NCBI GenBank assembly: GCA_965660855.1
Contig: CBFIBM010000004.1
Location: 44,698-108,697 of the forward strand
Direction of reading: 5' to 3'
Length of the DNA: 64,000 nucleotides
Source of the DNA: an uncultured bacterium
GTDB lineage: Bacteria > Fidelibacterota > Marinisomatia > Marinisomatales > UBA1611
Positions 4,038 to 53,328 of this stretch are shown piece after piece. How positions within the stretch are numbered: position 1 is the first letter of the stretch; every line of letters begins with the position of its first letter. The notes beneath the pieces were generated by a model, which worked only from the letters and a program-made list of their open reading frames with translations, made no database searches and was not told the origin of the DNA. Made by a program: the position numbers and the translations under genes.

Positions 4038-4907
4038 ATGAAACCCAAACATCAATTTACATATTTTGTTCTTATTATTTTTAAAAAACTTATATCTAAT
4101 TTGTCTGATAGAACGAGATATAAATTATCAACTTATATTGGTAAAATTCTTTTTCATATTTTTAAAGTGAGAAGGGGCGTAGCTGAAAATAATATAAAGA
4201 GAGCATTCCCATTGTGGAACAATGAAAAAATTAATAGAACATTAGAAAAGACTTATATTTTTTTCAGTAATAACCTCATCAATTTTATTGGGTTTCCATT
4301 TACTTGGAAGAATTCAACCTTTAATGTAAGCGGGTCAAATTTTCTTGATAGTTCTTTTAAAAAAGGTAATGGAATAATAATGATTACCGGTCATTTTGGA
4401 GCATGGGAAATACTTGGTAAATGGTTAGGTGATTATGCAAACCTATTTACTGGAGTTGCGTTTAAACAGAAAAACTTAGGGGCACATAAATTTTTCATAG
4501 AACAAAGAGAGCTATCTAAGACACAACATATTTTTAAAAAAGAGTCCATTAAAAAAATGTATAGAGTTTTAGAGTTGAATGGAATACTTGGACTTGTGAG
4601 TGATCAAGATGCTGGTAAAAAAGGCACTTTTGTAAATTTTTTTGGTAGTAAGGCATCAACTCCAAAAGGAGCTGCTTTATTTTTTCTGAATACAAAATCT
4701 CCAATGATATTTGCATCATGTATTCAATTATCATTCCAAAATTATAAGATTGAATTTATTCCAATTGAAATCAAAAAGGAGTATCTCAATGATAAAGATG
4801 TTGAAAACATAACACAAACATATACTACGTTCCTTGAAAATTATATCAAGAAATATCCTGAACAATATTTTTGGTTTCATAAAAGATGGAAAACTAAAGA
4901 GTCCTAA
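4038..4907 (+). CDS. Lipid A late acyltransferase (LpxL/HtrB family)
   Basis: HFGAWE catalytic motif, DQDAG, and PEQYFWFHKRWK C-terminus. Confidence 0.9.
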   Translation: MKPKHQFTYFVLIIFKKLISNLSDRTRYKLSTYIGKILFHIFKVRRGVAENNIKRAFPLWNNEKINRTLEKTYIFFSNNLINFIGFPFTWKNSTFNVSGSNFLDSSFKKGNGIIMITGHFGAWEILGKWLGDYANLFTGVAFKQKNLGAHKFFIEQRELSKTQHIFKKESIKKMYRVLELNGILGLVSDQDAGKKGTFVNFFGSKASTPKGAALFFLNTKSPMIFASCIQLSFQNYKIEFIPIEIKKEYLNDKDVENITQTYTTFLENYIKKYPEQYFWFHKRWKTKES

Positions 4908-8540: not shown

Positions 8541-9211
8541 TAAAATATTTCCTTACATAAATTTATTGATAATGAAATTATTTGATTACTTAGTTTTAAG
8601 CCAAAACCAAGATCTAAAAAATAATTTTTATATAAGCAATCAATCTCAAAATAGTTTAACTGCCCTTTTTTTCGCTGTATATCATTTGAAATTCGAAAAA
8701 TTGAAGTTTTTATAAACATTGAACCAGCCCCATATCGAAAATGAAAATTTTTCAACTCCACCCATTTTTTAAGTTCAATATTAATTGAACTTAAAAAAAA
8801 ATGTTCTAATCCTTTTATATCCGTTCTTTGAACTATAAATAAATTATTTAAGGTATCATCATTCGTTCCAAAATAATACTGAACTCCTGCTCCTAAAATT
8901 TGAGGTGTTTCATCATCAAATTGAAAACTAAAAACCTTAGATGAAAGCATTAAGTTTTTTGATATCTGGGCAGAAAAATTTATTTTAGGATAAAATGTAT
9001 TATTTTTAAACCCACTTATTGTAAGATACGAATTTTGAAAGTGAATTTTTGCTTTACTATTGGGGTTTATAGTTGGTGTTTGTGAAAGCAAATAACCTGT
9101 ACTTAATAAAATATGCTCCTCACAGTTGTCACAATTTTCTAAATCAAAATTAGATGATGCCGATGAAATAAGGACAACAAAAAAAATCCAATACTTCATT
9201 AAAGGTTTCAT
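8540..9211 (-). CDS. Hypothetical exported protein, possible outer-membrane beta-barrel
   Basis: Signal peptide, alternating amphipathic strands, C-terminal Phe. Confidence 0.5.
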   Translation of the reverse strand: MKPLMKYWIFFVVLISSASSNFDLENCDNCEEHILLSTGYLLSQTPTINPNSKAKIHFQNSYLTISGFKNNTFYPKINFSAQISKNLMLSSKVFSFQFDDETPQILGAGVQYYFGTNDDTLNNLFIVQRTDIKGLEHFFLSSINIELKKWVELKNFHFRYGAGSMFIKTSIFRISNDIQRKKGQLNYFEIDCLYKNYFLDLGFGLKLSNQIISLSINLCKEIF

Positions 9212-9995: not shown

Positions 9996-10460
9996 TTATT
10001 CTCTCGCTCTATCTACAAGGTTCGCTGCAAATTTTGCTTCTGCTACAAGGGTATCGTCTACGTAGCATTTCCCGTGAAACTTACATAAATTTAATTTTCT
10101 TTTTGCTAACTCCATATGGACTTTTAATTGATCTCCGGGAGTAATCGGTTTTCTAAACTTTGCACTTTCAACAGTTGAGAAGAACATATTCATAGATAAA
10201 GGGTCCTTAATTTGGCTTAACATTAAAAAGGACCCTGCCTGTGCCATAATCTCAAGAGAGAGAACGCCTGGCATAACTGGCTGTCCTGGAAAGTGCCCTT
10301 GAAAAAAGGGTTCATTTATTGTCATATTTTTTAATGCTACAAGTGATTTACCTTCTTCTATTATATTTATTCTATCTATTAGAATAAATGGATATCTATG
10401 AGGTAATATTTTTATAATATCATTTATATCAAAATCTTTTTGATTTATTAAACTATTCAT
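9996..10460 (-). CDS. fabZ: 3-hydroxyacyl-ACP dehydratase FabZ
   Basis: LPHRYPF and FFQGHFP...MPGVLSLE; start placed at the ATG (10460) 2 nt after the lpxC stop, preceded by GGGGGA. Confidence 0.93.
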   Translation of the reverse strand: MNSLINQKDFDINDIIKILPHRYPFILIDRINIIEEGKSLVALKNMTINEPFFQGHFPGQPVMPGVLSLEIMAQAGSFLMLSQIKDPLSMNMFFSTVESAKFRKPITPGDQLKVHMELAKRKLNLCKFHGKCYVDDTLVAEAKFAANLVDRARE

Positions 10461-10462
10461 TA

Positions 10463-11410
10463 CTAATCCCCCAACCATAATTCATTTAATTCTTTTGCAT
10501 ATTCTTTTTTTACTTTTTTTACAAACTCAACATTACTTGCATGCCCAGCTCTTGCTGCAGTAACATGTCCTTTAATTGGAACACCTAACAACGCTAAGTC
10601 TCCAATGAGATCCAAAGTTTTATGTCTAACTGGTTCATTCTTAAAACGTAGAACTTTTCCATTTAAAATACCGTTAGCTCCTTGGATTATATTATCTTCT
10701 ATTCCGAATAAATCTTTTAATCTTTCCATTTCTATATTATCAATTACTTTATCTATTATCACAACTGCATTATCTAAGGCGCCGCCTCTTATTAGTCCTT
10801 TTTCTTTAAGCATTTCCACTTCACTTAAAAAGCAAAAAGTCCTTGCTGGAGCAACCTCAAACGCAAAATCTTCTTCCATGTTATAAATTGCCTCATATTG
10901 AGTTCCTAAAGCCGGAAGTGGATATTCAACCATAAAAGTAATTCTAAACCTATCAGATGGAATTACATGTATATCTATATCTCTGTAAGGATTTGTGTAG
11001 TTTACTGCTCTTGTTATTTCAAGAACTTTTCGTTCTTTCTTTTGTAGTTTAATTCCGGCTTTAATTAAGCACTCCACAAAATCCTTTGCACTACCATCCA
11101 TTACTGGAGGCTCTTTACCTGTTAATTCGATCAGTATGTTGTCAATTCTTAATCCACTTACCGCAGCCAAAGCATGTTCTACTGTGTGGATTCTAACATC
11201 ATTCTCTTCAATAGTTGTTCCTCTAGAAATATCAACTACATGGTCAATATCTGCCTTTATTTCTGTACGACCAGGTATATCTGACCTTATGAATCTGATT
11301 CCATAATTTTCAGGAGCAGGATGAAATGTTATTTTTGTTTTAACTCCAGTATGTAATCCAACACCTTCACATGATTGGGAAGACCTTATTGTTCTTTGTT
11401 TTCTTTCCAT
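10463..11410 (-). CDS. lpxC: UDP-3-O-acyl-GlcNAc deacetylase LpxC
   Basis: GVGLHTG, TVEH, ARTF, HKTLDLIGDL, AGH. Confidence 0.97.
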   Translation of the reverse strand: MERKQRTIRSSQSCEGVGLHTGVKTKITFHPAPENYGIRFIRSDIPGRTEIKADIDHVVDISRGTTIEENDVRIHTVEHALAAVSGLRIDNILIELTGKEPPVMDGSAKDFVECLIKAGIKLQKKERKVLEITRAVNYTNPYRDIDIHVIPSDRFRITFMVEYPLPALGTQYEAIYNMEEDFAFEVAPARTFCFLSEVEMLKEKGLIRGGALDNAVVIIDKVIDNIEMERLKDLFGIEDNIIQGANGILNGKVLRFKNEPVRHKTLDLIGDLALLGVPIKGHVTAARAGHASNVEFVKKVKKEYAKELNELWLGD

Positions 11411-39116: not shown

Positions 39117-39899
39117 TTAAATTGTCCCTGATCTTGATTCGCCCCCATCACAATATATTATTGAACAATTAATAAAGTCTGCGTCTTTATTTAATAACAT
39201 AGATATTGTTGCTGCGATATCGTCAGGTGTTGTTGTTCTCCCCATTGGGTTCCTTTTTTTAGTATTTTCAACCCAAGTTTCCCAATTTTCCGTAATCTTT
39301 GTTAAAGCTCTTGTTGGAGTCACTCCAGCTTGCACAGAATTTGCAGTTATTCCATATTTCCCTAGCTCCCAACCAATTTGTCTAATGATTGCTTCCATTG
39401 CAACTTTTGCAACACTTACAGGACCGTATCCTTCCATCGCCAAATAATTTCCTTCACTTGTTAATCCCATAATCCGTGAGCCTTGAGATAAGAGCTCATT
39501 AAGAAAAAGGTTTTGAGTCCAATAAAGTAATGAATTACCCATCACATGCACTGTCATATCCATCTGTCTTTGAGTAACCGGCTTCTCACCAAAAAAGTTA
39601 GTTGTTGTTCCAAAAGCAATAGAATGTAATAGCAGCTTAAGTGGTTTTCCTTCAGTAATTTCTTTTATTTTTGGAATATATTTCTGGATGGTATCTTCAG
39701 AAGCTGCATTTGTATTAAAATAATGACAGCAACCACTTGACAACTGCTCTACTTCTTCAATATTTTTTAAAGCAATTTTTTTTGCTTCTCCTCTATCAAA
39801 ATGAAAAGCAATTATTCCATATCCATCTTTTGCTAATCTTTTAGCTGTTGCAGCTCCATGTCCAGTTGAACCTCCAAGCAATAAAACCCATTGACGCAT
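39117..39899 (-). CDS. SDR-family enoyl-ACP reductase (FabL/FabI-like)
   Basis: GGSTGHG Rossmann motif and Y-x6-K (YGPVSVAK) spacing typical of enoyl reductases; divergent from fabA. Confidence 0.75.
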   Translation of the reverse strand: MRQWVLLLGGSTGHGAATAKRLAKDGYGIIAFHFDRGEAKKIALKNIEEVEQLSSGCCHYFNTNAASEDTIQKYIPKIKEITEGKPLKLLLHSIAFGTTTNFFGEKPVTQRQMDMTVHVMGNSLLYWTQNLFLNELLSQGSRIMGLTSEGNYLAMEGYGPVSVAKVAMEAIIRQIGWELGKYGITANSVQAGVTPTRALTKITENWETWVENTKKRNPMGRTTTPDDIAATISMLLNKDADFINCSIIYCDGGESRSGTI

Positions 39900-40023
39900 T
39901 TTTTTTCTCCAAAATAATTAATTCTAATTTAACTTTTTATTTTTATTTAATTGTTATGAATTGTGAGTTTAAAAATTGATTTTTTTGTTGTACTCTTTAT
40001 GATTAAAAATTAATTATAAAAAA

Positions 40024-40575
40024 ATGAATCAGAAAAATAGTTATACAAAAAAAGAGTTGATTAAGAGTGGTAACGGAACACTAATGGGAAATGATACTGG
40101 TAAATTACCACAACCTCCCATGCTTATGGTAGATCGGATCCTCACTATAAATGATATTGGTGGTAAATATAAAAAGGGTGAGATTTTAGCAGAGCTCGAT
40201 ATAAAAGAAGAAAATTGGTTTTTCCACTGCCATTTTAAAGGCGATCCAGTAATGCCTGGCTGTTTAGGTTTGGATGGAATGTGGCAATTGGTTGGCTTTT
40301 TCCTTACGTGGATGAATGGAAAAGGAAGAGGTCGTGCATTGGGCGTTGGTGATTTAAAGTTTAAAGGCCAAGTAAGACCATATCATGATAAAATTGTTTA
40401 TAAAATTGATATTAAAAAAGTTTTAGATAGAAATGGAAAATTAATGGTTTGGGCAGATGGTGAGTTAAGTACCTCTGATAACAGAGCTATATATTTTGCA
40501 AAAAACCTTCAGGTTGGTTTATTTGACAACTTAACCTATGATTTTGGCGGAGATCCGTCACAAGATACATTTTAA
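40024..40575 (+). CDS. fabA: 3-hydroxydecanoyl-ACP dehydratase/isomerase FabA
   Basis: LPQPPMLMVDRI, WFFHCHFKGDPVMPGCLGLD (His/Asp dyad), GRGRALG, VGLF. Confidence 0.93.
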   Translation: MNQKNSYTKKELIKSGNGTLMGNDTGKLPQPPMLMVDRILTINDIGGKYKKGEILAELDIKEENWFFHCHFKGDPVMPGCLGLDGMWQLVGFFLTWMNGKGRGRALGVGDLKFKGQVRPYHDKIVYKIDIKKVLDRNGKLMVWADGELSTSDNRAIYFAKNLQVGLFDNLTYDFGGDPSQDTF

Positions 40576-40596: not shown

Positions 40597-41700
40597 ATGT
40601 CTTTAAAATGTGGAATAGTTGGTCTTCCAAACGTTGGAAAATCAACTTTGTTTAATGCACTTACTGAATCAGATGTTCCTGCAGAAAACTACCCTTTTTG
40701 TACGATTGAACCCCATACCGGGATTGTGCCTCTACCTGATAATCGATTAAACTATTTAGCAGGTATTTATAAACCAAAAAAAGTAATACCTGCAATAGTT
40801 GAGTTTACAGATATAGCAGGTTTAGTACGAGGCGCAAGCAAAGGGGAGGGTTTAGGGAATCAATTTTTAGGACAAATTCGGCAAACATCCGCAATCATTC
40901 ATGTAATTAGGTGTTTTGAAAATGAAAATATCACACATGTTGACGGAAATATTAACCCTGTTAGAGATGCTGAAACAATAGAAACAGAACTCTTGTTAGC
41001 AGATATAGAAACACTCGAAAAAAGGCATAGGAAAACAGTAAAAGCTGCAAGATCAAATGAAAAAGATGCTATTGCTGAATTAAAACTGATTGAAGAACTA
41101 ACTAAATATTGCTCTGATGGAAACCAATCACGGACCTTTAACATTTTAGATGAAAAAATGAGAAATGTATTTAATAGTTTTCATTTATTGACTAGCAAGC
41201 CGATCCTCTATATAGCAAATATAAGCGAAGACGAAATTATTGAAAAAGAAAATAATAAATACGTTAATGATCTATTTAACTTTGCTCAACAGCAGGGTAA
41301 TAATGCAATTCGGATTTGCGCTTCATTAGAACAAGAGATTGCTACATTGCCATTAAAAGAAAAACATCTTTTTTTACAAGAGTATCATTTAAAAGAACCC
41401 GGCTTAAATAAAGTAATTAAACATGGTTTTAAATTACTTGGACTTCAAACATATTTTACTTGTGGTGAAAAAGAAGTTCGAGCATGGACAATCCCTATTA
41501 ATTCAAACGCTCCTAAAGCTGCAGGCGCTATACATTCTGATTTCGAAAGAGGATTTATCAAAGCAGAAGTTTTTCACTATGATGATATTTTAAAATATGA
41601 ATCTGAAAAAAAACTATCTGAGCTTGGATTAATAAGGCAAGAAGGAAAAAATTATATAGTTCAGGATGGAGATTGCATATTCTTTAAGTTTAATGTCTAA
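40597..41700 (+). CDS. ychF: Redox-regulated ATPase YchF
   Basis: GIVGLPNVGKST, YPFCTIEP, DIAGLV, TGS domain ending FKFNV. Confidence 0.97.
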   Translation: MSLKCGIVGLPNVGKSTLFNALTESDVPAENYPFCTIEPHTGIVPLPDNRLNYLAGIYKPKKVIPAIVEFTDIAGLVRGASKGEGLGNQFLGQIRQTSAIIHVIRCFENENITHVDGNINPVRDAETIETELLLADIETLEKRHRKTVKAARSNEKDAIAELKLIEELTKYCSDGNQSRTFNILDEKMRNVFNSFHLLTSKPILYIANISEDEIIEKENNKYVNDLFNFAQQQGNNAIRICASLEQEIATLPLKEKHLFLQEYHLKEPGLNKVIKHGFKLLGLQTYFTCGEKEVRAWTIPINSNAPKAAGAIHSDFERGFIKAEVFHYDDILKYESEKKLSELGLIRQEGKNYIVQDGDCIFFKFNV

Positions 41701-41733
41701 AGACTTTTGTTAAAGATTTCTATAGTATAGTCT

Positions 41734-42423
41734 CTATTTATCCTCGTCTTCCCATTCTTCTTCATCGTACTGATCACCTTCATACTCATCATCTTCATAT
41801 TCGTCATAATCATCATCATAGTAATCAGCTGGGTATGCAAAATAAGGATTATTAGAAACCCCATATGGTGAATGCGGATTTAGTTGATTTGTAGTAGCAT
41901 CACTTAAATTTGATTGGTTTTCAGCAGCTGCTTGTTCTTGTTTTACGATTATTACTTTAGGATCATTTACAATTGTTTCTTTATTCTGTTTATTCTGATT
42001 TATCGCATCCATCACAAGATTTCTATCCTCATCTGATAAGCCACTTATCGATGTTGGACTGCTTTGAATATTTTTATTTTGATTTCTAAAGTTCAACCCT
42101 GTAAGTACTGAGAAAAAAAGAATTATCAATGAAAAAATTGCACCTTCTGGCTTTAAATCAAAGCCACCCCACATATTTTGCTGAATACCAAAACCAAAGA
42201 AAATCCCAAGGGAGAGCATCACGCCAAAAAGCATAATCATATTACCCATTTCTCTGGGAATGTGAGATTCCATTACAAGCATATAAAGAAACCAAATTAA
42301 TATTACCATCACGGAAATAATAATACTCAACAAGAACTCTCCCATTAGAAGAGAGATAAAAAAACCGACAACTCCAATTGCCGGAATTATGAAACCAACT
42401 CCTGATTTTACATCACTAGCCAT
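41734..42423 (-). CDS. Hypothetical 4-TM membrane protein with Asp/Glu/Tyr-rich tail
   Basis: ATG at 42423 preceded by GGAG; four hydrophobic segments followed by a low-complexity tail. Confidence 0.75.
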   Translation of the reverse strand: MASDVKSGVGFIIPAIGVVGFFISLLMGEFLLSIIISVMVILIWFLYMLVMESHIPREMGNMIMLFGVMLSLGIFFGFGIQQNMWGGFDLKPEGAIFSLIILFFSVLTGLNFRNQNKNIQSSPTSISGLSDEDRNLVMDAINQNKQNKETIVNDPKVIIVKQEQAAAENQSNLSDATTNQLNPHSPYGVSNNPYFAYPADYYDDDYDEYEDDEYEGDQYDEEEWEDEDK

Positions 42424-42564
42424 GTCAAAACTCCAAAAACACCTCGAATTAAGTTTAAAATTGCTGTTTGTATTTATTAAATGCAAGATTTTTCATTATT
42501 AAAAATATCATATATTTTCATTGCTATAATACAAGTATCTATTATTGTAATTTAAGGGATTAAA

Positions 42565-43554
42565 ATGAAAACAAATCTATTAAAATTTGGCGTTATCGGA
42601 GTGGGCCATCTAGGGCAACATCATGTCAAGCACTATTGTAATATTAATGATATTGAGTTTGTAGGCTTTTATGATCCTGATTCTCAAAGAGCTTATGAAA
42701 TATCTCAACAATTTAAAACAAAAGCATTCAGGAGCTTAGAAAAACTGTTATTATCCGTAGATGCAGTTTCTATTGTTTCACCTACAATATATCATTCTAA
42801 AATTGCAGAAAGTTGTATTCTTTTAAAAAAACATGTTTTTATTGAAAAACCAATTGCGTCAACTGTAGAAGAAGCTGATAGATTAATCCAGCTTTCTGAA
42901 AAGAAAAACATAATAATTCAAGTTGGACACATTGAGCGACTAAACCCTGCATTAAAAGCATTGGACAAATATTTATTGCAACCAAAGTATTTAGAAATAC
43001 AGCGATTGTCTCCATACAACACACGGGGGACAGACGTCCCAGTTGTTTTAGATAAAATGATTCATGATATTGATATTGCATTATTCCTTGCAGGTTCAGA
43101 GGTTAATACTGTTTCAGCATCTGGATTATCAATATTAACTGATTCAATTGATATTGCAAATGCTAGAATTGAATTTAAGAATGGATGTGTAGCAAATATA
43201 ACTTCTAGCAGAGTAGCAAAAGATGAAATACGAAAAATAAAAATATTTCAAAAAAATCTTTATTCTACTATAGATTTATATAAAGGACTTACTGAGGTTT
43301 ATTCAATAAATAATGAAAGTTCAGAAAAAAATAAAACCATAATGAACGTACCTTTTAATTACAAAGGTGAAAAAAAACTTATTCACTATGACAAGCCTAC
43401 GGTACTTAAAAGTGATGCTTTAAAATTAGAACTTATTAATTTTGTAAGGTCAATTAAAGGGCACGAAAAGCCTATTGTAGATGGATATGCCGGACGAGAA
43501 GCATTAAAAATAGCAATTGAGATTCAAAACGAAATTATTAAAGAGGTGAATTAA
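42565..43554 (+). CDS. Gfo/Idh/MocA oxidoreductase, GnnA (UDP-GlcNAc 3-dehydrogenase)-like
   Basis: GVGHLG, EKPI, VGHIERLNP, DVPVVLDKMIHDID, ANITSSRV; upstream of lpxB. Confidence 0.85.
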   Translation: MKTNLLKFGVIGVGHLGQHHVKHYCNINDIEFVGFYDPDSQRAYEISQQFKTKAFRSLEKLLLSVDAVSIVSPTIYHSKIAESCILLKKHVFIEKPIASTVEEADRLIQLSEKKNIIIQVGHIERLNPALKALDKYLLQPKYLEIQRLSPYNTRGTDVPVVLDKMIHDIDIALFLAGSEVNTVSASGLSILTDSIDIANARIEFKNGCVANITSSRVAKDEIRKIKIFQKNLYSTIDLYKGLTEVYSINNESSEKNKTIMNVPFNYKGEKKLIHYDKPTVLKSDALKLELINFVRSIKGHEKPIVDGYAGREALKIAIEIQNEIIKEVN

Positions 43555-44129
43555 TGAATTTTAAAAAAATTATTTTCGCGAATAGAAGCTACACACCAAT
43601 TCCAATTGCTATTGCCATGATTTTTTTTTCATCTTTTATATATCCATTTTATTTAGGTGGAGCCATTCTTATTTTCTTTGGGGAGACCATTAGATTTAAT
43701 GCGGTTCGCTATGCTGGAGGAGCTACTCGAACGCTAAAAGTTGGCGCACCATCATTATGTACAAGTGGTCCTTATGCTTTCACTCGGAACCCTTTGTATT
43801 TAGGTAATATGATAATTTATCTAGGGTTCGTCCTTTTTTCTGGTGGAGCTTATATGTTTGAACTATTATTGTTTGTCTTTTTTTATTTTTCATTTCAATA
43901 TTTTATGATTATCAATCTTGAAGAAAAAACCTTGTATAAGAAGTTTGAAAATTCTTATTCTGATTACACTAAAAATGTACCTCGATTAATTCCTCGATTA
44001 AATCGTTGGGAAAATGAAGATGATCGTAAACCGATGAAGTTGATAAAAATATTCAAAACTGAAAAAAGGTCTTTACAAAATATCTTTCTAATTATATCAT
44101 TGATAATAATTAAAAACTTTTATGTCTAA
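43554..44129 (+). CDS. ICMT/PEMT-family membrane methyltransferase (LmtA-like candidate)
   Basis: L.TSGPY..TRNPLYLG, EE..L...F...Y..Y...VPR.IP; multiple TM segments. Confidence 0.85.
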   Translation: MNFKKIIFANRSYTPIPIAIAMIFFSSFIYPFYLGGAILIFFGETIRFNAVRYAGGATRTLKVGAPSLCTSGPYAFTRNPLYLGNMIIYLGFVLFSGGAYMFELLLFVFFYFSFQYFMIINLEEKTLYKKFENSYSDYTKNVPRLIPRLNRWENEDDRKPMKLIKIFKTEKRSLQNIFLIISLIIIKNFYV

Positions 44130-45237
44130 AATAAAGAAATTCTTTATTATAGCAGGGGAGAGCTCTGGTGATTTTCATGGAGCTAAGCTAATTAATAGAA
44201 TTAAAGCTTTAGAGCCAAATAGTACATTTATGGGACATGGTGGAAACCTCATGAAATCTGAGGGAATGTTGATCTTAGAACATATAAACAGTTTATCTAT
44301 TATGGGTTTTACTGAAGTAATAAAACATCTACCACGGTTAAGGATTATTTTTAAAAAAACGATTAAAGCCATAGAAAAATCAAAACCAAACAGAGTTATT
44401 TTAATTGACTATCCTGGATTTAATTTAAGAATTGCAAAAAAAATTTTTCATTTAAATATACCAGTGTCTTATTTTATTTTACCACAGGTTTGGGCATGGA
44501 AAAAGAATCGTATTAAACTAATTAAAAAATATATTGATCACCCTATTTCTATCTTCAAATTTGAGACATCCTGGTTTTTAAAAAATAAAATTAATGTAGA
44601 TTTTTTTGGTCACCCATTATTAGATCAAAGACATTTAAATGAAACCTCAAAATCTTTTTTTACGAGGCACGACCTTACTATTGAACACCCAATTCTTTTA
44701 CTTCTTCCTGGAAGTCGACAGCAAGAAATTAATTATCATTGGCCAATATTTTTATCTTTAATCAAAATTATTAAAAAGAAGAATCCAAACTTTCAATTTA
44801 TTCTGGGAAAATCAGATACAGTTAAGATTTTAGATATTCCAGATTATATAAAAATTGAAAATAATGCTAATAAAGCTATGGTTGTTTCTACAGCAGCTAT
44901 TACAGCTTCAGGTACTGCAACACTAGAGTGTGCAATTGAAGAATTACCAACAATTGTTTGTTATAAAATGTCTTCTATTTCATGGACCATTGCTAAGTAC
45001 TTAACAAATTTAAAATATTCAAGTATTGTAAACATAATTGCTGATAAAGAAATCTTCCCTGAATTCTTACAAGATAAAATGAATACAAATTTGATATTAA
45101 AAAAACTTGAATCACTTTTAGCCGCAAATTCAATTGAAAGAAAAACAATGATTGAAGATCTTCAACAAATCAAAATCTCACTTGGAAATCCAGGTGTTTA
45201 TGATAGAATAGCAAAATCAATTATAAAGAGACATTAA
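44122..45237 (+). CDS. lpxB: Lipid A disaccharide synthase
   Basis: AGESSGD, IDYPGFN, PQVWAW, GHPL, LLPGSR, SGTATLE. Confidence 0.96.
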   Translation: MSKIKKFFIIAGESSGDFHGAKLINRIKALEPNSTFMGHGGNLMKSEGMLILEHINSLSIMGFTEVIKHLPRLRIIFKKTIKAIEKSKPNRVILIDYPGFNLRIAKKIFHLNIPVSYFILPQVWAWKKNRIKLIKKYIDHPISIFKFETSWFLKNKINVDFFGHPLLDQRHLNETSKSFFTRHDLTIEHPILLLLPGSRQQEINYHWPIFLSLIKIIKKKNPNFQFILGKSDTVKILDIPDYIKIENNANKAMVVSTAAITASGTATLECAIEELPTIVCYKMSSISWTIAKYLTNLKYSSIVNIIADKEIFPEFLQDKMNTNLILKKLESLLAANSIERKTMIEDLQQIKISLGNPGVYDRIAKSIIKRH

Positions 45238-45240
45238 TAC

Positions 45241-45888
45241 TTGAAAAAACATAAAAAATCAGAAATAAAAACGTTGGGAATAAGTTTGATTTTAAAATTA
45301 TTGTATAGTACAAATAAATACCATGTTTCTGGTAAAAAAAACATCCAAAAAATAAGAAATTCAGGAACATCAATTATAATTTCAACATGGCACTCAAACT
45401 TATTATCTGTTTTTTATGAATTAAGGAAGTTAGATGTTCATGCTTTAGCAGGGACACATAATGATGCTGAGTTAATATCTCAAGTTGCACTTAAATGGGG
45501 TTGGAAAATGATTCGAGGTTCGAGCAAAGAAGATGGATCTAAAGCTTATAAAGAAATTTTAAAGACACTATCTAAACCCAGTAATATTCTATTTATAACA
45601 CCAGACGGACCAACAGGGCCTGCAAAACAGCCAAAACCAGGTATTATTCGAGCAGCTCAAGCAACACAAGCAGCAATAATACCAACTAGCGTTATTTCAA
45701 CCAGACATTGGGGGTTTACAAATTGGGATACTTTTTACTTAGAAAAACCTTTTGGAAAGATATTTATAAATTATAGTGATCCAATTTTCATCGATAAAAA
45801 TATAAATTTTAAAAACGCTGTTTTAAAATTTAACAAAGCTATGGATAGATCAGATAAAATTAATTTGCGTAATGCAACTAAAAATTAA
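45241..45888 (+). CDS. DUF374-family acyltransferase (LpxJ-like)
   Basis: WH, H.DAE, IRGSS, ITPDGPTGP, WD...PFG motifs; TTG start. Confidence 0.82.
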   Translation: MKKHKKSEIKTLGISLILKLLYSTNKYHVSGKKNIQKIRNSGTSIIISTWHSNLLSVFYELRKLDVHALAGTHNDAELISQVALKWGWKMIRGSSKEDGSKAYKEILKTLSKPSNILFITPDGPTGPAKQPKPGIIRAAQATQAAIIPTSVISTRHWGFTNWDTFYLEKPFGKIFINYSDPIFIDKNINFKNAVLKFNKAMDRSDKINLRNATKN

Positions 45889-46954
45889 CTTCCTAAGGCA
45901 GCTTCTTTATCCTTTATTGCCGCTCTATTGGGTTATAGTTTCTGTTAGAAATATTTTATTTGATTTAAGACTTATTAAAATCCACCATCTTAAATGTACT
46001 GTAATTAGTATTGGAAATCTTTCAACAGGTGGGGTAGGGAAAACCCCTATGACAATTTTTCTTGCTAAAGAACTTATGAAAAAGGGCTTAAAGATTGGGA
46101 TACTTACCAGAGGATATGGCCGAAACTCAAAAAAGACATTTATTATATGTAATGATGGAAAAGAAAACACTGATCATCTTAATCCATTTGAAATAGGTGA
46201 TGAACCAGTTCTACTGTATAAAAAACTAATTAATGTCCCAATAGCGGTTTCTAAGAATCGTATGAGCGCGGGAAAATTAATTGTACAAAAATATGAACTT
46301 GACGCAATTATTCTAGATGATGGTTTTCAGCACAGGTACATTAAGAGAGATATTGATATACTTTTAATTAATTCACTTGATCAAAAATCCAATTATAAAC
46401 TTTTGCCAGTTGGGAATTTAAGAGAACCTTGGAATGCCATAAAAAGATCGGATTTTATCATCTTAACTAAAGCAAATTTATTAGTAAAAGAGAGTGAATA
46501 TATACACAATAAATTAAAAAATGAATCCAACGTGATTATTTCTGATTCATATAATAAAGTTATTCAAAGTAAAAAAAGTTTATTAATGAAATTTGATGGT
46601 AAAAAAGCTGTTTTACTATCTGGGATTGGCGATTCTAAAAGTTTTGACATAAGCTCCAGTCAACTTGGAATTAATATAGTAGGGCATGTAAGACTTAAGG
46701 ACCATTTTCAATACACAAAAGAAAACCTAAAAAAAATATTAAATAATAATTATATTAAAAACGCAGATTTTATTTTAACAACTGAAAAAGACTTAGTTAA
46801 AATAGAAAAGTTTAACATAAGGCTTCCTATTATTCCATTAGAATTAATTTTTAATATCAGAGAAAGGGAGGAGGCTAAAAAGCTTATAACTTTCATTTTA
46901 AAAGAAATTAAATCTGAGACATCCCATAAGCAAAAACGACACCAACAAACGTAA
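45872..46954 (+). CDS. lpxK: Tetraacyldisaccharide 4'-kinase
   Basis: SIGNLSTGGVGKTP, RGYG, GDEP, LDDGFQH, LRE, DH, TTEKD. Confidence 0.95.
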   Translation: MQLKINFLRQLLYPLLPLYWVIVSVRNILFDLRLIKIHHLKCTVISIGNLSTGGVGKTPMTIFLAKELMKKGLKIGILTRGYGRNSKKTFIICNDGKENTDHLNPFEIGDEPVLLYKKLINVPIAVSKNRMSAGKLIVQKYELDAIILDDGFQHRYIKRDIDILLINSLDQKSNYKLLPVGNLREPWNAIKRSDFIILTKANLLVKESEYIHNKLKNESNVIISDSYNKVIQSKKSLLMKFDGKKAVLLSGIGDSKSFDISSSQLGINIVGHVRLKDHFQYTKENLKKILNNNYIKNADFILTTEKDLVKIEKFNIRLPIIPLELIFNIREREEAKKLITFILKEIKSETSHKQKRHQQT

Positions 46955-49900
46955 GCATAAGCGGCCATCCTGTATTAACTAACTGTTTTGAACTTGGGTC
47001 ATGAAAAACGTGTACTTGAAACTCATGTGTTGAAGTTGCTCCATGTTCATCCACAGCCATCAAAATGAAATCATTCATTCCCATTTGATTTTTTCTTGGT
47101 GTCCACTCTAAAGTTGCTCTGTTTTTATCAAATCTAGCATATTTTGGCAATCGAACTGATCTATATGCTACTTTATCCCCATTAAGGTCTTCAGTAGTTA
47201 TTTTATACCTCCATGAATGACCCGTTAATCCTACTGGTTTTGGGCTTGAAATAACGGTTGGAGCGTTATTTACAAATATTTTACCTTTTTGTACATCAGT
47301 ACCATAACCATCGCTAACTGCAACTTCAAAAGTATTATTATTTATCTGCGCCGCTTTGGGTACCCACAAAATCTTTCCATACCTATCCATTTGCATTCCG
47401 TGAGGCCCCTTGAGAAGTGTATATTCCAATTTTGTGTTTTCATTTTTATCTTCTACTCTTACTTGATATTTAAATAACTCGCCAGCAAGTCCCATGTGTG
47501 GAGGATTTGAAACAATTGTTGGTAAATGATTTGCATAAACTTCATAAGTTTGTTCATCTTTAGTGTACCCATCAGATACAACAACGGTAATTCTATGTGC
47601 GTCAGCTTGTTCAACCGTTGGAGTCCAACGTAATGTACCTGAAGATTTTTCAACAACCATGCCTTCAGGAAAATCTAATAAATTAAAACGAAAAGGGTTT
47701 ACTTTTTCGACAACAACTCGTGGAGGCTTACCTTTTGATCCATGGAAAAACTCCCATAAAAAGTCTTTCATCTTTATAGTTCTACCATCAATAGTTTCTA
47801 ATAAAACCCAAAGTCGATCATCCTCAAAAAATACAGAATGGGTATATTTTTTTAAATTCAATCTTGAGACTAAACTATCAGCTGGATATTTAGGATCTAC
47901 ATAATATATCGCATCACTGTTATGCCAATCCCCTAAAAATCTATCTATATTTGATAGGGCAACATCATCTGTAATATTGATTGAATACATTCTAATTGCA
48001 GAAACATCATGTACTTTTACTACTCGTTTAAATGGTAGTAGTGCACCTTTATTTTTATCATTTATCATTATTTTATATGCGTATTCTTCTCCAACTGTAG
48101 AAGACATAGGAGGGACAGATACTATTTTAGTAGGTGCATTAACAAAAAACTCTGACTCAATTATTCTTGATTCATGTCCGTCTGAAATTTCAATTTTTAA
48201 TTTGTGAAAGTCCAATTCATTCATTGTTGGCTCCCAGCGTAAAAATCCAGTTTGAGGGTCCATGCGCATACCTTCTGGAAGCTCATGGGCGGTATATATT
48301 AATCTATCCTTCTTATTTGGCTCTTCAATTACTAGATCAAAATCCCAAATTCCTCCGACATTTATAGTATTCATTATCATAGGAGCTGATTTTATTATTG
48401 GAGGATGATTCACAAATAACTTGACATTCTGCGTATCAGTAGCGACACCATGGCTTACAATAATACTATAGTCAACCGTGTCTACCTGGACAGGGTTTGG
48501 AGTCCAGGATATAGTACCATCAGGCTGTAATTTCATTCCATCAGGACCCGAAAACAGCTTGTAGCTTATTTTTTCATCAGGTCTTTGTTTCCATACTTTA
48601 ACGGTATAATTATAAGGTGTACCTACACTTGCCTTTCCAGGTGCTTTGGATAATATCTTAACTCCAGCTCTTGAAAATAATTGAAACTCTTGTGCTGTTC
48701 TTTCAAAACCATCGGAGGCAATAAGCCTTACATCATAAACCTCAACATGATTACTATCTGTTTTCCAAACAATTACATCATCTTCAATATACATACCTTC
48801 AGGAGCAACTTCTAACTCAAGCTTTATTGAGCTATCTTTATTTAAGTCTTGAATAATTGGTTCATATCTAAAGGTTGATCCTGCAATAAATTCTGTTATA
48901 GTTGGTTGAGTTAAGAAACGTGGAGGGTCATTAACATAAACCCACAAACTTTCATCGCGGCTTTCTAGAACTGGAACAGCCTTAAAAACTTGCTCAACTT
49001 CATTTACTCCTGTTGTTGCTTCCATTGTTTCATCTACTTTCATTCTAACCATGTATGAAAGTGAAAATGCATCTAATTGTTTTTCTGTTGGAACCCAATT
49101 AATTGATTTACTCTCATATAAAAAATACATTCCTTTTGGTGGCTGTTTTTCCCATCTAAAACTGTAAAACTCATCACTACTATCTTTAGGAATTTCATAT
49201 AAGAATGGTTGTCCTGGCCTGAGAACGTACCTTGGTAAAATATATTTAGGTAGCCTTTGTCCAAGCGCCTCTTTTGGCTTTGGTAATTTAGGCTGTTCTA
49301 AGGTTCTGACAATTTTTTTTGGTATTGGCATTCTTGGCTGCTCCCTAAGAACTTTACCTTCTTTTTGATCAGGGTATATTGTACTTGGTAAATAACTACT
49401 TGGTGATTCTCCCAAGTCTGTTATAATTATCTCTTCTTTTTGTGGTTCCAACGGGATTTTTTCTTCTGGTGGTAATTCTATAAAAACTTCTGGTATTTCA
49501 GGTTTTAAATCATCAACATTTGAAAGAAGAGCTGGTAATTGTTTTTGAATAAAATCAGGAGTAATAAGATATCCTTGGTCTAACTGGCTTGACTTCGAAC
49601 CCAACTCTACTATGTATGTAGAGTTTTGATCTCCATTCCAGCCAGAAACTAAAATACTACCACTATAAAGACCTGCTTTTGTTAATGGAAGCATTGAAAA
49701 AATCTGCATTTCGTTTGGAACATTTTTTAAAGCATTTTGAACCTGCTTTGATCCCCCATTTTTACCCGATATCAAAGTAATTGTGTTGAGGTCAGAAGAA
49801 AGAGTGAGTATGTCTTCATAGGTGTCTTGATCAAAATCTTCTAATGCAATTTGTGTAAGAGGACCGCTTACGATTGGGACTTCTTCAATTACCAAAGTGG

Positions 49901-50792
49901 CAGGTGTAAGAGTAAAAGCAACAATATCGCCAGAATTAAAAGGAACGAGAACATCAGAAAATCCATCAGCATCCCAATCCGTTAGTTGAATTGAATTTGG
50001 CAAAATTCCACTCAAACCATCAATTTGTTTGCGTACAAGATGCCCTGAATCAAAAACGCCTCCAATATTATAAAATGGCTGTGCCTTTATTGTGTTACCA
50101 TCAGGACTTAAAGCTAATACATCATCATAACCGTCTCCATCATAATCAACTACGCCAACATATAGCAACCCAGATCCAACTAACAGCTGATCTGGACGTA
50201 TTTTTTTTGAGAGCGACATCCCATTCGCATTAAAGTTCACAACCGCAAAACCTCGAAATGGACTGCCCAAGGCTAGAACTATTTCTTGATCACCGTCTGA
50301 GTCCTGGTCAAGAAGTTGAAAGTTATTACATCGTAAAGATCTATTTTCCTTTCCTAAATCTAGTGTAGAGCTTGGAATTTCTGAAAAATTTGTTCCATTC
50401 CATGAATAAGTTGCTATAAAAACGTGTGGCGTTGTATTGTTTTCAAAGCGAGAAAGATTCATTACAATAATGATTTCAGGAAAACCATCCCCATCTACAT
50501 CACCAATCTTAGCATCAACAAAATCTCCTGCTAACTCAACCGGAGGTTTAAACTCCCAGATTAATGTCTGATAGTTATCTGCATCAATTTCATAGTATCT
50601 AACCTTATTAGGAAACACACCTTCTTTTGGATTTAGTTCTAAAGCTATAAACTCTAACATTTGATCCCCATCAAGATCATATGCTCCATTCATGTGAGAA
50701 ATTTTTTGTCCAAATAAAAATGAAAAAATAACAAAGGACATAAAAACTGTTGTAATATTTTTATTACTAGTTTTAATATTTAGACTTAACAA
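46908..50792 (-). CDS. Large surface protein: FG-GAP/VCBS repeats, Pro-rich linker, seven cadherin-like (He_PIG-type) Ig domains, C-terminal TM anchor
   Basis: DxDGDG-type repeats (DLDGDQ, DVDGDG, DQDSDG, DYDGDG, DWDADG, DFDQDT); repeats of N.PP...P.GM....G...W.P...SDG; hydrophobic C-terminus. Confidence 0.85.
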   Translation of the reverse strand: MLSLNIKTSNKNITTVFMSFVIFSFLFGQKISHMNGAYDLDGDQMLEFIALELNPKEGVFPNKVRYYEIDADNYQTLIWEFKPPVELAGDFVDAKIGDVDGDGFPEIIIVMNLSRFENNTTPHVFIATYSWNGTNFSEIPSSTLDLGKENRSLRCNNFQLLDQDSDGDQEIVLALGSPFRGFAVVNFNANGMSLSKKIRPDQLLVGSGLLYVGVVDYDGDGYDDVLALSPDGNTIKAQPFYNIGGVFDSGHLVRKQIDGLSGILPNSIQLTDWDADGFSDVLVPFNSGDIVAFTLTPATLVIEEVPIVSGPLTQIALEDFDQDTYEDILTLSSDLNTITLISGKNGGSKQVQNALKNVPNEMQIFSMLPLTKAGLYSGSILVSGWNGDQNSTYIVELGSKSSQLDQGYLITPDFIQKQLPALLSNVDDLKPEIPEVFIELPPEEKIPLEPQKEEIIITDLGESPSSYLPSTIYPDQKEGKVLREQPRMPIPKKIVRTLEQPKLPKPKEALGQRLPKYILPRYVLRPGQPFLYEIPKDSSDEFYSFRWEKQPPKGMYFLYESKSINWVPTEKQLDAFSLSYMVRMKVDETMEATTGVNEVEQVFKAVPVLESRDESLWVYVNDPPRFLTQPTITEFIAGSTFRYEPIIQDLNKDSSIKLELEVAPEGMYIEDDVIVWKTDSNHVEVYDVRLIASDGFERTAQEFQLFSRAGVKILSKAPGKASVGTPYNYTVKVWKQRPDEKISYKLFSGPDGMKLQPDGTISWTPNPVQVDTVDYSIIVSHGVATDTQNVKLFVNHPPIIKSAPMIMNTINVGGIWDFDLVIEEPNKKDRLIYTAHELPEGMRMDPQTGFLRWEPTMNELDFHKLKIEISDGHESRIIESEFFVNAPTKIVSVPPMSSTVGEEYAYKIMINDKNKGALLPFKRVVKVHDVSAIRMYSINITDDVALSNIDRFLGDWHNSDAIYYVDPKYPADSLVSRLNLKKYTHSVFFEDDRLWVLLETIDGRTIKMKDFLWEFFHGSKGKPPRVVVEKVNPFRFNLLDFPEGMVVEKSSGTLRWTPTVEQADAHRITVVVSDGYTKDEQTYEVYANHLPTIVSNPPHMGLAGELFKYQVRVEDKNENTKLEYTLLKGPHGMQMDRYGKILWVPKAAQINNNTFEVAVSDGYGTDVQKGKIFVNNAPTVISSPKPVGLTGHSWRYKITTEDLNGDKVAYRSVRLPKYARFDKNRATLEWTPRKNQMGMNDFILMAVDEHGATSTHEFQVHVFHDPSSKQLVNTGWPLMLTFVGVVFAYGMSQI

Positions 50793-50797
50793 AATAA

Positions 50798-53287
50798 CTA
50801 CTTTTTACCCTCTATTAGCTCTTTATCGTCAATGACTTTTTTATCACCTTGAGACTTTGAAGGAAATTCTATCTTCTTTGTTGGTAACGTATTTTTTCTA
50901 TTTTCAAGTTTTAGTGTATCTGTTTTAGGAACAATATCTTCGAATTCTATATTATTATCCTCGCTTTCTTGTGTTTGAGGTAAGCTTTTTAGTGAATCTG
51001 TTTTAACAGCCTCTGTCTCCTCCACTTCTTCAAATGGGATATTACTTTGTTTTGGTTTTATTGGAATTAGTGGTTCTAATTGTTCAGTCTGAGCATCTGG
51101 TAATCTTGGCTCTCTGAATACTTTAGGTATCTTCCCCTTAGGGCCAAATAAAGGCTCTTCCAAAGACCCTCCTTGTAACAACCTAATTTTCAATTCATCT
51201 GGGAAGAATTCTTTAATCAGCCTCGAAAAAAGTACTTCAGGTTGTACTTTTCCTGTTAGATCAAATTCAGTGGTGACTTTTTTAAAACCGTTTGGGCGTA
51301 CAATAATTTCTCCTCTAATTGCTTGGAGTTTTCCTTGGTCCATAAATACAGCTAAAGATTGAGTGGGAATAGATGGAGTTGTAGAAGAAAGGTATATTCC
51401 TTGATATAGTGAATCTTTGACCCCGTCAAAACTAAACCTTATTAATTTTTCAGTAAAATCCGTATCTAATGAATTTGGAAATCCTTCAAAAAAATATTCT
51501 GGAAATTCGAATAGCTTTGGATCAAAAGCCTCTGGTTGATATGAATGAGAAACAGAATCATCACTAGGGCTTATTGACATGAAAATAACATTTTTTTGCA
51601 TATCATGAACCATGGTTAAAGTTGTAATACTATCAAGCCTCGAATCTCTTAAAGAATAAGCAAAGTCAAATGTCTCACCAAAAGTCAAATTAGCCAAATT
51701 TGCTGAAATACCATGCTGAATGTGAGTTGCCTCTCCTTTAGGAGGTATTTGATTAACTGCAATGCCAAATGGGGCTTCACCATCAAAAACATATCTATCT
51801 CTTCTTCCACTTGATGGAGTCATTGCTAAGACATAATAAAGATCGATATCATCACCAGATGTTTCTAAAACTGACGTGTCTATTTCAGAAAGTTTTGGAC
51901 TAATAGCTTGTCTAGCGTCTTTAGTGAAAGACACTATTTCTGAGTCTATCTGAGGTAAATCTATATTTTCTTTGACTGTATCTAAATTAACATTTGAATA
52001 TTCTCCAAGATCTAATTTTGTGAAACCTGCTTCATCTGCCCAGTTTACACTAGACATGTCATTGTTGACATTCGGTATTTCAAATTTAGTTTCTGAGGAT
52101 TTTTCTTTTTTTGCTGTACTTTTTACGCTTTCAAGAAAATCTCCTAAAGTTGGGCTTAATGATGAATAATCACTTTTGTTTTCAGGTTTGATATCAAAAC
52201 CTAATTCAGTTTGAATTACAGGAATATCTTGAACACTTTTTTGGTATTTTTCGTAAGATTTCTGTACTGAGGGTTCTTCTTTTATTGGAGGATTAAAAGC
52301 TTTTTTAACAAGAGTTTTAATTTTTTCACTTTCAAGGTTTTCTCGTATTTTTTCTATTTCTTTAAATACTTTTTTCTTCTTTTCAGGAAGGGCTATTCTT
52401 TTAACTAACTTTTTTTCTTTTATTTTAAGCTCATTTTTTTCTAAGTATAGAAGAAGTGAATCACCAGATAAAAAAGGGATAATTAAACCTTCATCTGAAG
52501 AATCATTTGATAATGGCTGCCTTTTTATTCCTGATCCAATGATTGATTTTACATTTCCAACCGGTAACGACTTACTATGAGATAAAAGAAATTCTTTTTC
52601 CACATTAAACAATACAGAATTCACTTTGTTGTTCTCTAAAGATAACATAGCAACATAATTAGTAGAATTGCTAGAAAATCTTTTTGTATAAACAGGTGAA
52701 TATCCATTTTCAATTATTGGAGCTGACAATTTATTAAATTTTTTAAGAATTAATTGGCTATCCTTAAAACTTATAGTAAAAAGAATTGCAGACCTTACTG
52801 GGGATCCAAAAGAAACAGATAGCATAGTTGGATTATTTGATACCAAAGCTAAATTTGTCGGTTTGAGACTATTTTGTCCAAGTGGTACTTCCCTATAAGT
52901 ATATGGTTTCTTGGAAAAAACACTGTTTTTAACACCTAAAAAAACATATAGCCAATCATTAGCACCAATTGAAGTGAAAAGGTTAGGCGTACCAACAAGG
53001 TCTTTTAAACCATCTCCATTAATATCAATTAGTTCAATATCTGTGAATTTTAAATTTCTATTACCCCTAAATGACCACAAAGTATCTGAATTATTCTGGG
53101 TCAATACAATACTAGACGTACCCCCATTCAGGGTAAATCTTTCAATTTTACCGTCGCTATTTAGATCGTAAGACCCATTTTTTATGCGGAGATCACCTCT
53201 ACCTATCAGGATAGACAAGTTGAACAACCACACAATAACTATGTATAAAACACCTCTAAAGGCACTTTTTAACGTAATATGCATCAT
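50798..53287 (-). CDS. Large exported hypothetical protein with N-terminal FG-GAP-like repeats
   Basis: Hydrophobic N-terminus, YDLNSDG and DINGDG..DL motifs, charged linker, conserved-looking C-terminal domain. Start uncertain (ATG 53287/53284 or TTG 53299). Confidence 0.75.
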   Translation of the reverse strand: MMHITLKSAFRGVLYIVIVWLFNLSILIGRGDLRIKNGSYDLNSDGKIERFTLNGGTSSIVLTQNNSDTLWSFRGNRNLKFTDIELIDINGDGLKDLVGTPNLFTSIGANDWLYVFLGVKNSVFSKKPYTYREVPLGQNSLKPTNLALVSNNPTMLSVSFGSPVRSAILFTISFKDSQLILKKFNKLSAPIIENGYSPVYTKRFSSNSTNYVAMLSLENNKVNSVLFNVEKEFLLSHSKSLPVGNVKSIIGSGIKRQPLSNDSSDEGLIIPFLSGDSLLLYLEKNELKIKEKKLVKRIALPEKKKKVFKEIEKIRENLESEKIKTLVKKAFNPPIKEEPSVQKSYEKYQKSVQDIPVIQTELGFDIKPENKSDYSSLSPTLGDFLESVKSTAKKEKSSETKFEIPNVNNDMSSVNWADEAGFTKLDLGEYSNVNLDTVKENIDLPQIDSEIVSFTKDARQAISPKLSEIDTSVLETSGDDIDLYYVLAMTPSSGRRDRYVFDGEAPFGIAVNQIPPKGEATHIQHGISANLANLTFGETFDFAYSLRDSRLDSITTLTMVHDMQKNVIFMSISPSDDSVSHSYQPEAFDPKLFEFPEYFFEGFPNSLDTDFTEKLIRFSFDGVKDSLYQGIYLSSTTPSIPTQSLAVFMDQGKLQAIRGEIIVRPNGFKKVTTEFDLTGKVQPEVLFSRLIKEFFPDELKIRLLQGGSLEEPLFGPKGKIPKVFREPRLPDAQTEQLEPLIPIKPKQSNIPFEEVEETEAVKTDSLKSLPQTQESEDNNIEFEDIVPKTDTLKLENRKNTLPTKKIEFPSKSQGDKKVIDDKELIEGKK

Positions 53288-53328
53288 GGTCCAAGCCAAA
53301 ATTGGATTTTTTTGGGGAGATAATACAC
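53284..53328 (-). CDS. Putative 14-aa upstream ORF (MYYLPKKIQFWLGP)
   Basis: Strong SD AAGGGAGGT (53343-53335) 6 nt before GTG; its TGA overlaps the ATGATG of the downstream gene. Confidence 0.4.
   Translation of the reverse strand: MYYLPKKIQFWLGP

Follow-up and report, generated by a model that had tools for sequence, protein, structure and literature searches.

A conserved late lipid A operon of Marinisomatota with a GnnA orthologue and an lpxB-linked relative of LmtA

Which lipid A would be made by a bacterium whose lpxB and lpxK genes lie in one operon with a sugar dehydrogenase, a membrane methyltransferase and a secondary acyltransferase? This question is raised by positions 42565–46954 of a 64,000-nucleotide stretch of DNA (the window) from an uncultured member of the Marinisomatota, a phylum also named Marinimicrobia, Fidelibacterota or SAR406. 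The assembly of this genome (G000) is 84% complete. An earlier note on this DNA had described five overlapping or abutting genes. All five open reading frames (ORFs) were found in place on the plus strand, and Pfam and NCBIfam confirmed their families:

42565..43554, plus strand: gene 1, GnnA-like UDP-N-acetylglucosamine (UDP-GlcNAc) 3-dehydrogenase (Gfo/Idh/MocA), 329 aa; GFO_IDH_MocA E 4e-28, 7bvj match
43554..44129, plus strand: gene 2, ICMT-fold membrane methyltransferase, short lpxB-linked relative of LmtA, 191 aa; PEMT/ICMT E 4e-9/2e-6
44122..45237, plus strand: gene 3, lpxB, lipid A disaccharide synthase, 371 aa; TIGR00215 262.6 bits, over cut-off
45241..45888, plus strand: gene 4, very probably lpxJ (DUF374), secondary acyltransferase, 215 aa, TTG start; PF04028, DUF374 E 2e-18
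45872..46954, plus strand: gene 5, lpxK, tetraacyldisaccharide 4'-kinase, 360 aa; TIGR00682 238.5 bits, over cut-off

The junctions are, in gene order, a 1-nt overlap, an 8-nt overlap, a 3-nt gap and a 17-nt overlap. The gene order is conserved and not a product of chance. The synteny check in relatives was positive: in all 30 same-order loci compared, the methyltransferase stood between a Gfo gene upstream and lpxB downstream. We propose that this is a late lipid A operon in which the methyltransferase would modify a lipid A phosphate, while GnnA would start a 3-amino sugar by means of an unlinked aminotransferase not found in the assembly. The chances of this combined proposal are about even. 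Taken by itself, methylation of a lipid A phosphate by gene 2 is fairly probable.

In the proposed pathway, GnnA would oxidise C3 of UDP-GlcNAc with NAD+. A pyridoxal phosphate (PLP) aminotransferase, in relatives a WbpE/QdtB-type DegT enzyme or, in most of the order, a RifK-like one, would then form the 3-amino derivative UDP-GlcNAc3N. LpxA, LpxC, LpxD and a hydrolase resembling LpxH, followed by LpxB and LpxK, would lead to the tetra-acyl disaccharide, to which LpxJ and LpxL would add secondary chains and KdtA 3-deoxy-D-manno-octulosonate (Kdo). The methyltransferase, its invariant arginines holding the phosphate, would use S-adenosylmethionine (SAM) to methylate, at the inner membrane, the 1- or 4'-phosphate and remove one negative charge. 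Leptospira carries the methyl group on the lipid A 1-phosphate (PMC4402001). In Mesorhizobium loti, the 4'-phosphate is described as partly methylated, and according to the same source BLAST found no lmtA and the gene for this methylation was not found (PMC4103559). By analogy with M. loti, gene 2 could methylate the 4'-phosphate instead of the 1-phosphate. The 'charge-reduced, hydrolysis-resistant' lipid A predicted by the earlier note can only be inferred.

Gene 2 shows the ICMT/Ste14 membrane fold with its SAM-side motifs. Its predicted model (predicted local distance difference test, pLDDT, 87) matched ICMT 5vg9 in a wide structure search with Z 12.6 and a root-mean-square deviation of 2.7 over 134 aligned residues, and Foldseek on the model gave no match at E 0.001. 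PEMT was the best Pfam family, and the ESM Atlas gave PEMT/ICMT again. The best NCBIfam model was TIGR04571, LmtA, with 58.7 bits (cut-off 325) over model positions 58–201 of 252, compared with 28.7 bits for ICMT (NF040696, cut-off 160) and 27.5 bits for MddA. TIGR04571 stands for LmtA of Leptospira interrogans, a lipid A Kdo2 1-phosphate O-methyltransferase (PMC4402001, PMC4103559). The claim that gene 2 is such an LmtA had to be given up in the narrow sense; kinship is suggested by diagnostic residues in common with LmtA-like proteins. On sequence grounds, the gene 2 family is a related, lpxB-linked subfamily and not LmtA proper. It comprised 196 clusters at 50% identity (E < 1e-30).

The relation to LmtA was followed in a phylum set of 151 Marinisomatota genomes, namely 150 drawn at a completeness of at least 90% and this genome. 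Two classes of methyltransferase were found: a short one of ~190 aa in 77 genomes (one in two pieces) and a long one of ~246 aa in 15. The long class scored 176–271 bits on the LmtA model, near full length in 14 and always under the cut-off. Unlike gene 2, which lies inside the lpxB operon, the long genes had no lpx linkage in the 11 loci inspected. No genome carried both types. The short type was accompanied by lpxB in each of its 77 genomes, and neither type was found in the 12 genomes without lpxB. In family f27, the short type occurs in 17 of 19 genomes and is replaced by the long type in one. This exclusion tracks family lines and thus represents few independent events. The long LmtA-like proteins (L148–L158, L252; 15 genomes) stand in varied gene contexts; one relative lies on a Pontibacter plasmid (44% identity), and one (P0284) is fused to a PAP2 phosphatase. 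Tandem double methyltransferase domains were seen in P0142, P0157, P0164, P0173, P0267 and P0282.

Short and long proteins have F8, R11, R47, R59, N85, Y116, I119, E123, E124 and E170 in common. As motifs, gene 2 and the LmtA-like proteins share an N-terminal F..RSY.P, R47, T58-R59, R[NH]PLY.GN, Y116/I119/E123/E124 and E170, and gene 2 is 32% identical to one of them. R47 is present in 27 of 27 short proteins, 15 of 15 further family members and 11 of 11 long ones. Of 20 other paralogues with the ICMT fold, 2 have R11, 2 have R47, 3 have I119 and 1 has E170, although this outgroup was chosen as weak hits and so differs by selection. A quick tree of 73 rows separated short and long proteins from the outgroup with a Shimodaira–Hasegawa-like approximate likelihood ratio test (SH-aLRT) value of 85, one long-branch outgroup row falling inside; with four long-branch rows omitted (69 rows), they stood apart from the paralogues with SH-aLRT 90. 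Both trees contain the long proteins as a stand-in for Leptospira sequences. In ICMT, the carboxylate is held by Arg173 and Arg246 (PMC8358657). With the eukaryotic and archaeal ICMTs (5vg9, 4a2n), gene 2 shares the fold, the SAM-side R.P.Y and EE motifs and an arginine, R47, in the column of Arg173. It differs from them by an isoleucine, I119, at the position of Arg246 and by extra conserved N- and C-terminal segments, and it is no member of ICMT (NF040696) by its score either.

The genomic context ties gene 2 to lipid A genes. A clear orthologue was present in 35 of 41 relatives. The neighbourhood was surveyed in two sets of loci, both made up of the nearest relatives and neither drawn at random. 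In the GTDB set (the best 80 of 594), lpxB was directly downstream in 66 cases, a Gfo gene directly upstream in 47 (one more was seen separately) and either in 77; records from Ignavibacteria, Kryptonia, Calditrichota and Gemmatimonadota are among these loci. In the metagenome set (the best 80 of 590), 47 loci were flanked by more than 1 kb on each side, and 43 of the 47 had a lipid A gene no more than 2.5 kb away. The methyltransferase stands with lpxB–lpxK behind a HAD phosphatase in Ignavibacteria and Kryptonia, and with gnnA, lpxB being elsewhere, in Gemmatimonadota, Latescibacterota and some Calditrichota. The three proteins P0218, P0223 and P0272, which fall into two clusters, are fusions of the methyltransferase to an LpxB-like domain; no genomic context was found for P0223. 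A search for longer forms (7,997 candidates scored) gave four proteins and no additional LpxB fusion, and an apparent methyltransferase–LpxB fusion at L098 was rejected as an N-gap artefact. The phosphatase of many Ignavibacteria and Kryptonia loci is MtnX-like (HAD-IB), lies directly upstream of methyltransferase–lpxB (L101:6227-6934) and takes the place that gnnA has in Marinisomatota. Its substrate might be a phosphate of lipid A or of Kdo.

Several of these properties weigh against a lipid A phosphate as substrate of gene 2. It fails the LmtA cut-off and is ~60 aa shorter than LmtA (191 aa against a 252-position model), missing two C-terminal helices. The equivalent of ICMT Arg246 is lost, and the arginine that all 11 long proteins have at the column of residue 118 is found in none of the short ones. 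The LpxB-like domain of the fusions is divergent (37–44 bits on TIGR00215), and 47 of the 139 genomes with lpxB have neither methyltransferase type. The selected outgroup, the stand-in for Leptospira in the trees and the inheritance of the two classes along family lines count on the same side.

Another acceptor in lipopolysaccharide (LPS) assembly is conceivable, such as the carboxylate of Kdo or of a uronic acid, the 3-amino group that the GnnA route would supply, or an intermediate carried on a lipid. Enzymes of the ICMT/PEMT fold methylate carboxylates, amines and thiols, and the active-site arginine pattern of gene 2 is unlike that of the LmtA-like proteins. The methyltransferase is also found beside gnnA without lpxB in 11 of the best 80 GTDB loci and beside kdtA in one metagenome locus. 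It stands, however, beside lpxB without gnnA in 30 of the same 80, and its three invariant arginines are common with the LmtA-like proteins, with which it never co-occurs. We regard such an acceptor as rather unlikely.

The second half of the proposal starts from gene 1. Its best PDB sequence match was 7bvj (E 3e-61, the next at 1e-22). The predicted model (pLDDT 92) gave 7bvj/7bvk, GnnA of Acidithiobacillus ferrooxidans, as top Foldseek matches with a TM-score of 0.86–0.88 and 34% identity (E 8e-37 versus 5e-25 for the next). Like the GnnA of A. ferrooxidans, which is thus its top match in sequence and fold, gene 1 lies beside lpxB. A strong match to gene 1 (E < 1e-89) was present in 139 of the 151 genomes, and lpxB in the same 139. 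The remaining 12 are without both, four of them having only a weak paralogue near 1e-55. The genes gnnA and lpxB adjoin by their listed coordinates with or without the methyltransferase between them, and conservation to genome G168 is 53% for the GnnA-like protein versus 47% for LpxB. The earlier assignment to GnnA was borne out by the distance to other Gfo enzymes and by the co-distribution with lpxB: gene 1 is orthologous to GnnA and belongs to the core lipid A genes of the phylum. The family NF040723 was rejected as a proxy for GnnA, as it was matched in Bacillus subtilis, Synechococcus and two archaea and not in Caulobacter. GnnA-like proteins therefore exist without lipid A. In genus g61 (G044, G055, G071, G075, G079, G086, G102; one a single contig), neither lpxB nor a strong gnnA match was seen, which makes loss of lipid A possible in a Marinisomatota genus.

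GnnA needs an aminotransferase partner if a 2,3-diamino-2,3-dideoxyglucose (GlcN3N) backbone is to be made. The earlier note had seen no gnnB in the window, and rightly so: no DegT was present among the scanned window ORFs or in the genome search of the window. The only full DegT of the genome is ArnB-like and lies beside a sugar transferase on the 3.7-kb contig C51. It was rejected as GnnB because of this neighbour and because its best match was ArnB (E 5e-66), with WbpE not among 26 matches at 1e-30; two other PF01041 matches in the genome were too weak (E 1e-5). In the phylum set, two profiles served as proxies in place of a true GnnB sequence, one for the WbpE/QdtB type (E ≤1e-95), which we take to aminate C3, and one for a RifK-like DegT of ~410 aa (E ≤1e-110). 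The best PDB match of the latter was RifK (E 4e-62), closely followed by BtrR/RbmB (E 2e-60). RifK aminates UDP-3-keto-glucose (PMC8788734). The synthesis of UDP-kanosamine by RifL/RifK of Amycolatopsis resembles the route proposed here in that an oxidoreductase and a PLP enzyme act on C3 of a UDP-sugar (PMC8788734); the RifK-like gene of the relatives differs in being unlinked to gnnA and absent from this genome.

Either proxy type, a candidate 3-aminotransferase, was found in 126 of the 139 genomes with lpxB: 70 had only the WbpE/QdtB type, 51 only the RifK-like type and 5 both, leaving 13 with neither. With family f12 set aside, 55 genomes of this order have lpxB, and of these 48 had the RifK-like and 7 the WbpE/QdtB type. 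In contrast to the GnnA/GnnB pathway, most of the order thus has a RifK-like DegT in place of the WbpE/QdtB type, and this pattern suggests that the enzyme may replace GnnB in relatives. Its gene lies between tldD and hsp20 (L061, L067) and occurs in 58 of the 151 genomes. The case for such a replacement is weakened by the presence of both types in genomes in which lpxB was not found (2 RifK-like, 7 WbpE/QdtB-type), and by a DegT pattern that tracks family lines and therefore reflects few independent events. Linkage of the partners is not general, as gnnA and gnnB of M. loti are described as unlinked (PMC5644692).

For this genome, several findings run against a 3-amino sugar. The search of the 84% complete assembly found no C3-type DegT. 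The RifK-like gene is cleanly deleted: the gap between tldD and hsp20 is 264 bp on an unbroken contig (G000:C8:24726-26864). No DegT stood in the flanks of the methyltransferase in any of the best 80 GTDB loci, again unlike a linked GnnA/GnnB pair. G168, with two contigs and 95% completeness, has an intact operon and no DegT match at E 1e-12. LpxA gave no hint, since the top nine solved LpxAs were nearly level (193–208 bits) and a preference for UDP-GlcNAc3N is not readable from sequence. The diamino backbone predicted earlier is therefore not established here; it is likely for the phylum and evenly balanced for this genome.

The gap could also be taken at face value. The methyltransferase would then act on a lipid A phosphate all the same, while the backbone would be ordinary or mixed glucosamine (in genus g1 and some others), the aminotransferase lost and the GnnA-like protein left with another role at C3 or a non-DegT partner. 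The same clean deletion of the RifK-like gene in G002 and G018 as in this genome fits this explanation, as do seven of the 12 other genomes with neither proxy, the two-contig G168 among them, in which no DegT was detected at E 1e-12. It is further favoured by G001 of the same genus, which has an ArnB-like DegT only, and by the continued conservation of the GnnA-like gene. However, G002, also of the same genus, carries a WbpE-type gene within a polysaccharide cluster. Such clusters are fragmented in this genome (contigs C21, C36, C51), so a WbpE-type gene may be present and unassembled. Together with the candidate aminotransferase in 126 of 139 genomes, this makes an ordinary backbone unlikely. 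Gene 2 might instead methylate phospholipids or proteins, have nothing to do with LPS and be inherited with the operon. PEMT as best Pfam family, the missing lpx linkage of the long LmtA-like genes and the 47 of 139 lpxB genomes without either type speak for this. It is nevertheless very improbable, since in several phyla the linkage of gene 2 has outlasted rearrangements, with lipid A neighbours of three different kinds, since fusions to an LpxB-like domain occur, and since the methyltransferase was not found in any of the 12 genomes that lack lpxB.

The proposed late lipid A operon is completed by gene 4, which scored 66.2 bits with DUF374 (cut-off 26.8). W60, H61, D86, D132, W172 and D173 are reported as essential in LpxJ of Rickettsia typhi (PMC6148475). 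Gene 4 has all six as W50, H51, D75, D122, W162 and D163 with spacing within one residue, and its H73 aligns with R. typhi H84. It thus resembles the LpxJ of Helicobacter, Campylobacter, Wolinella and Rickettsia in its mutation-sensitive residues, and LpxL is present here too. From these residues, gene 4 very probably has the role of LpxJ. Its identity as claimed earlier is upheld, but not the idea of an Epsilonproteobacterial speciality, as the family is broad with 2,842 homologues by the count of that source (PMC6148475). The LpxJ part of the operon is ordinary, and the DUF374 gene is absent from the operon in several relatives. Further lipid A genes lie in the window outside the operon:

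4038..4907, plus strand: late acyltransferase of the lpxL family; no other PF03279 gene was found in the genome
9221..12411, minus strand: lpxD, lpxC, fabZ and lpxA, early lipid A genes

The gene kdtA was found on contig C8 and an LpxH-like hydrolase, under its cut-off, on contig C17; a search for LpxI found none. Both fabA and fabZ are present (39117–40575 and 9996–10478), with a FabL-like enoyl-ACP (acyl carrier protein) reductase divergent from fabA. An ORF of 223 aa between lpxA and dxr (8543–9211, minus strand) had no Pfam match.

A contig from a public run covers 41500–46033 with five differences and may stem from the source sample. Contigs of RNA libraries overlap pieces of all five operon genes, which alone cannot prove transcription, and one X1 contig (depth 3.4) carries an additional base in lpxB that may be an error. 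Promoter-like sites were about as frequent as expected by chance (26 observed, 28.8 expected). Breaks or frameshifts in lpxB of G012 (L260) and in the methyltransferase of G009 (C41) and G022 (L037) are probably assembly errors. Upstream, a membrane protein of 250 aa with an acidic tail (41734–42486, minus strand) is divergent from gnnA and keeps this position across the order; Pfam and NCBIfam scans gave no match. Downstream, a pair of large FG-GAP/Ig-repeat proteins (46908–50792 and 50798–53299, minus strand) is convergent with lpxK, overlaps it by 47 nt and stays next to the operon in many Marinisomatota.

To our knowledge, an enzyme for the methylation of lipid A phosphate has so far been assigned in Leptospira only, and no paper on the short methyltransferase family or on Marinisomatota lipid A was found in the open literature. 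We tentatively suggest, as a generalisation that is rather doubtful in its full breadth, that in Marinisomatota, Ignavibacteria, Kryptonia, Calditrichota, Gemmatimonadota and further poorly studied phyla the methylation of a lipid A phosphate is a trait of the core operon. It would be carried out by an undescribed ~190-aa family, for which the Leptospira-type LmtA would be a longer, unlinked replacement. A RifK-like aminotransferase would take the place of GnnB in most of the order, and some lineages including this one would run GnnA without a DegT partner. Each reaction has a precedent, so that known chemistry would be extended and no new class opened. If true, an lpxB-linked family across several phyla, among them the SAR406 bacteria abundant in the sea, would mean that this chemistry is common and would give names to its enzymes, and the pattern of GnnA without GnnB would point to an alternative aminotransferase or to a second role of GnnA.

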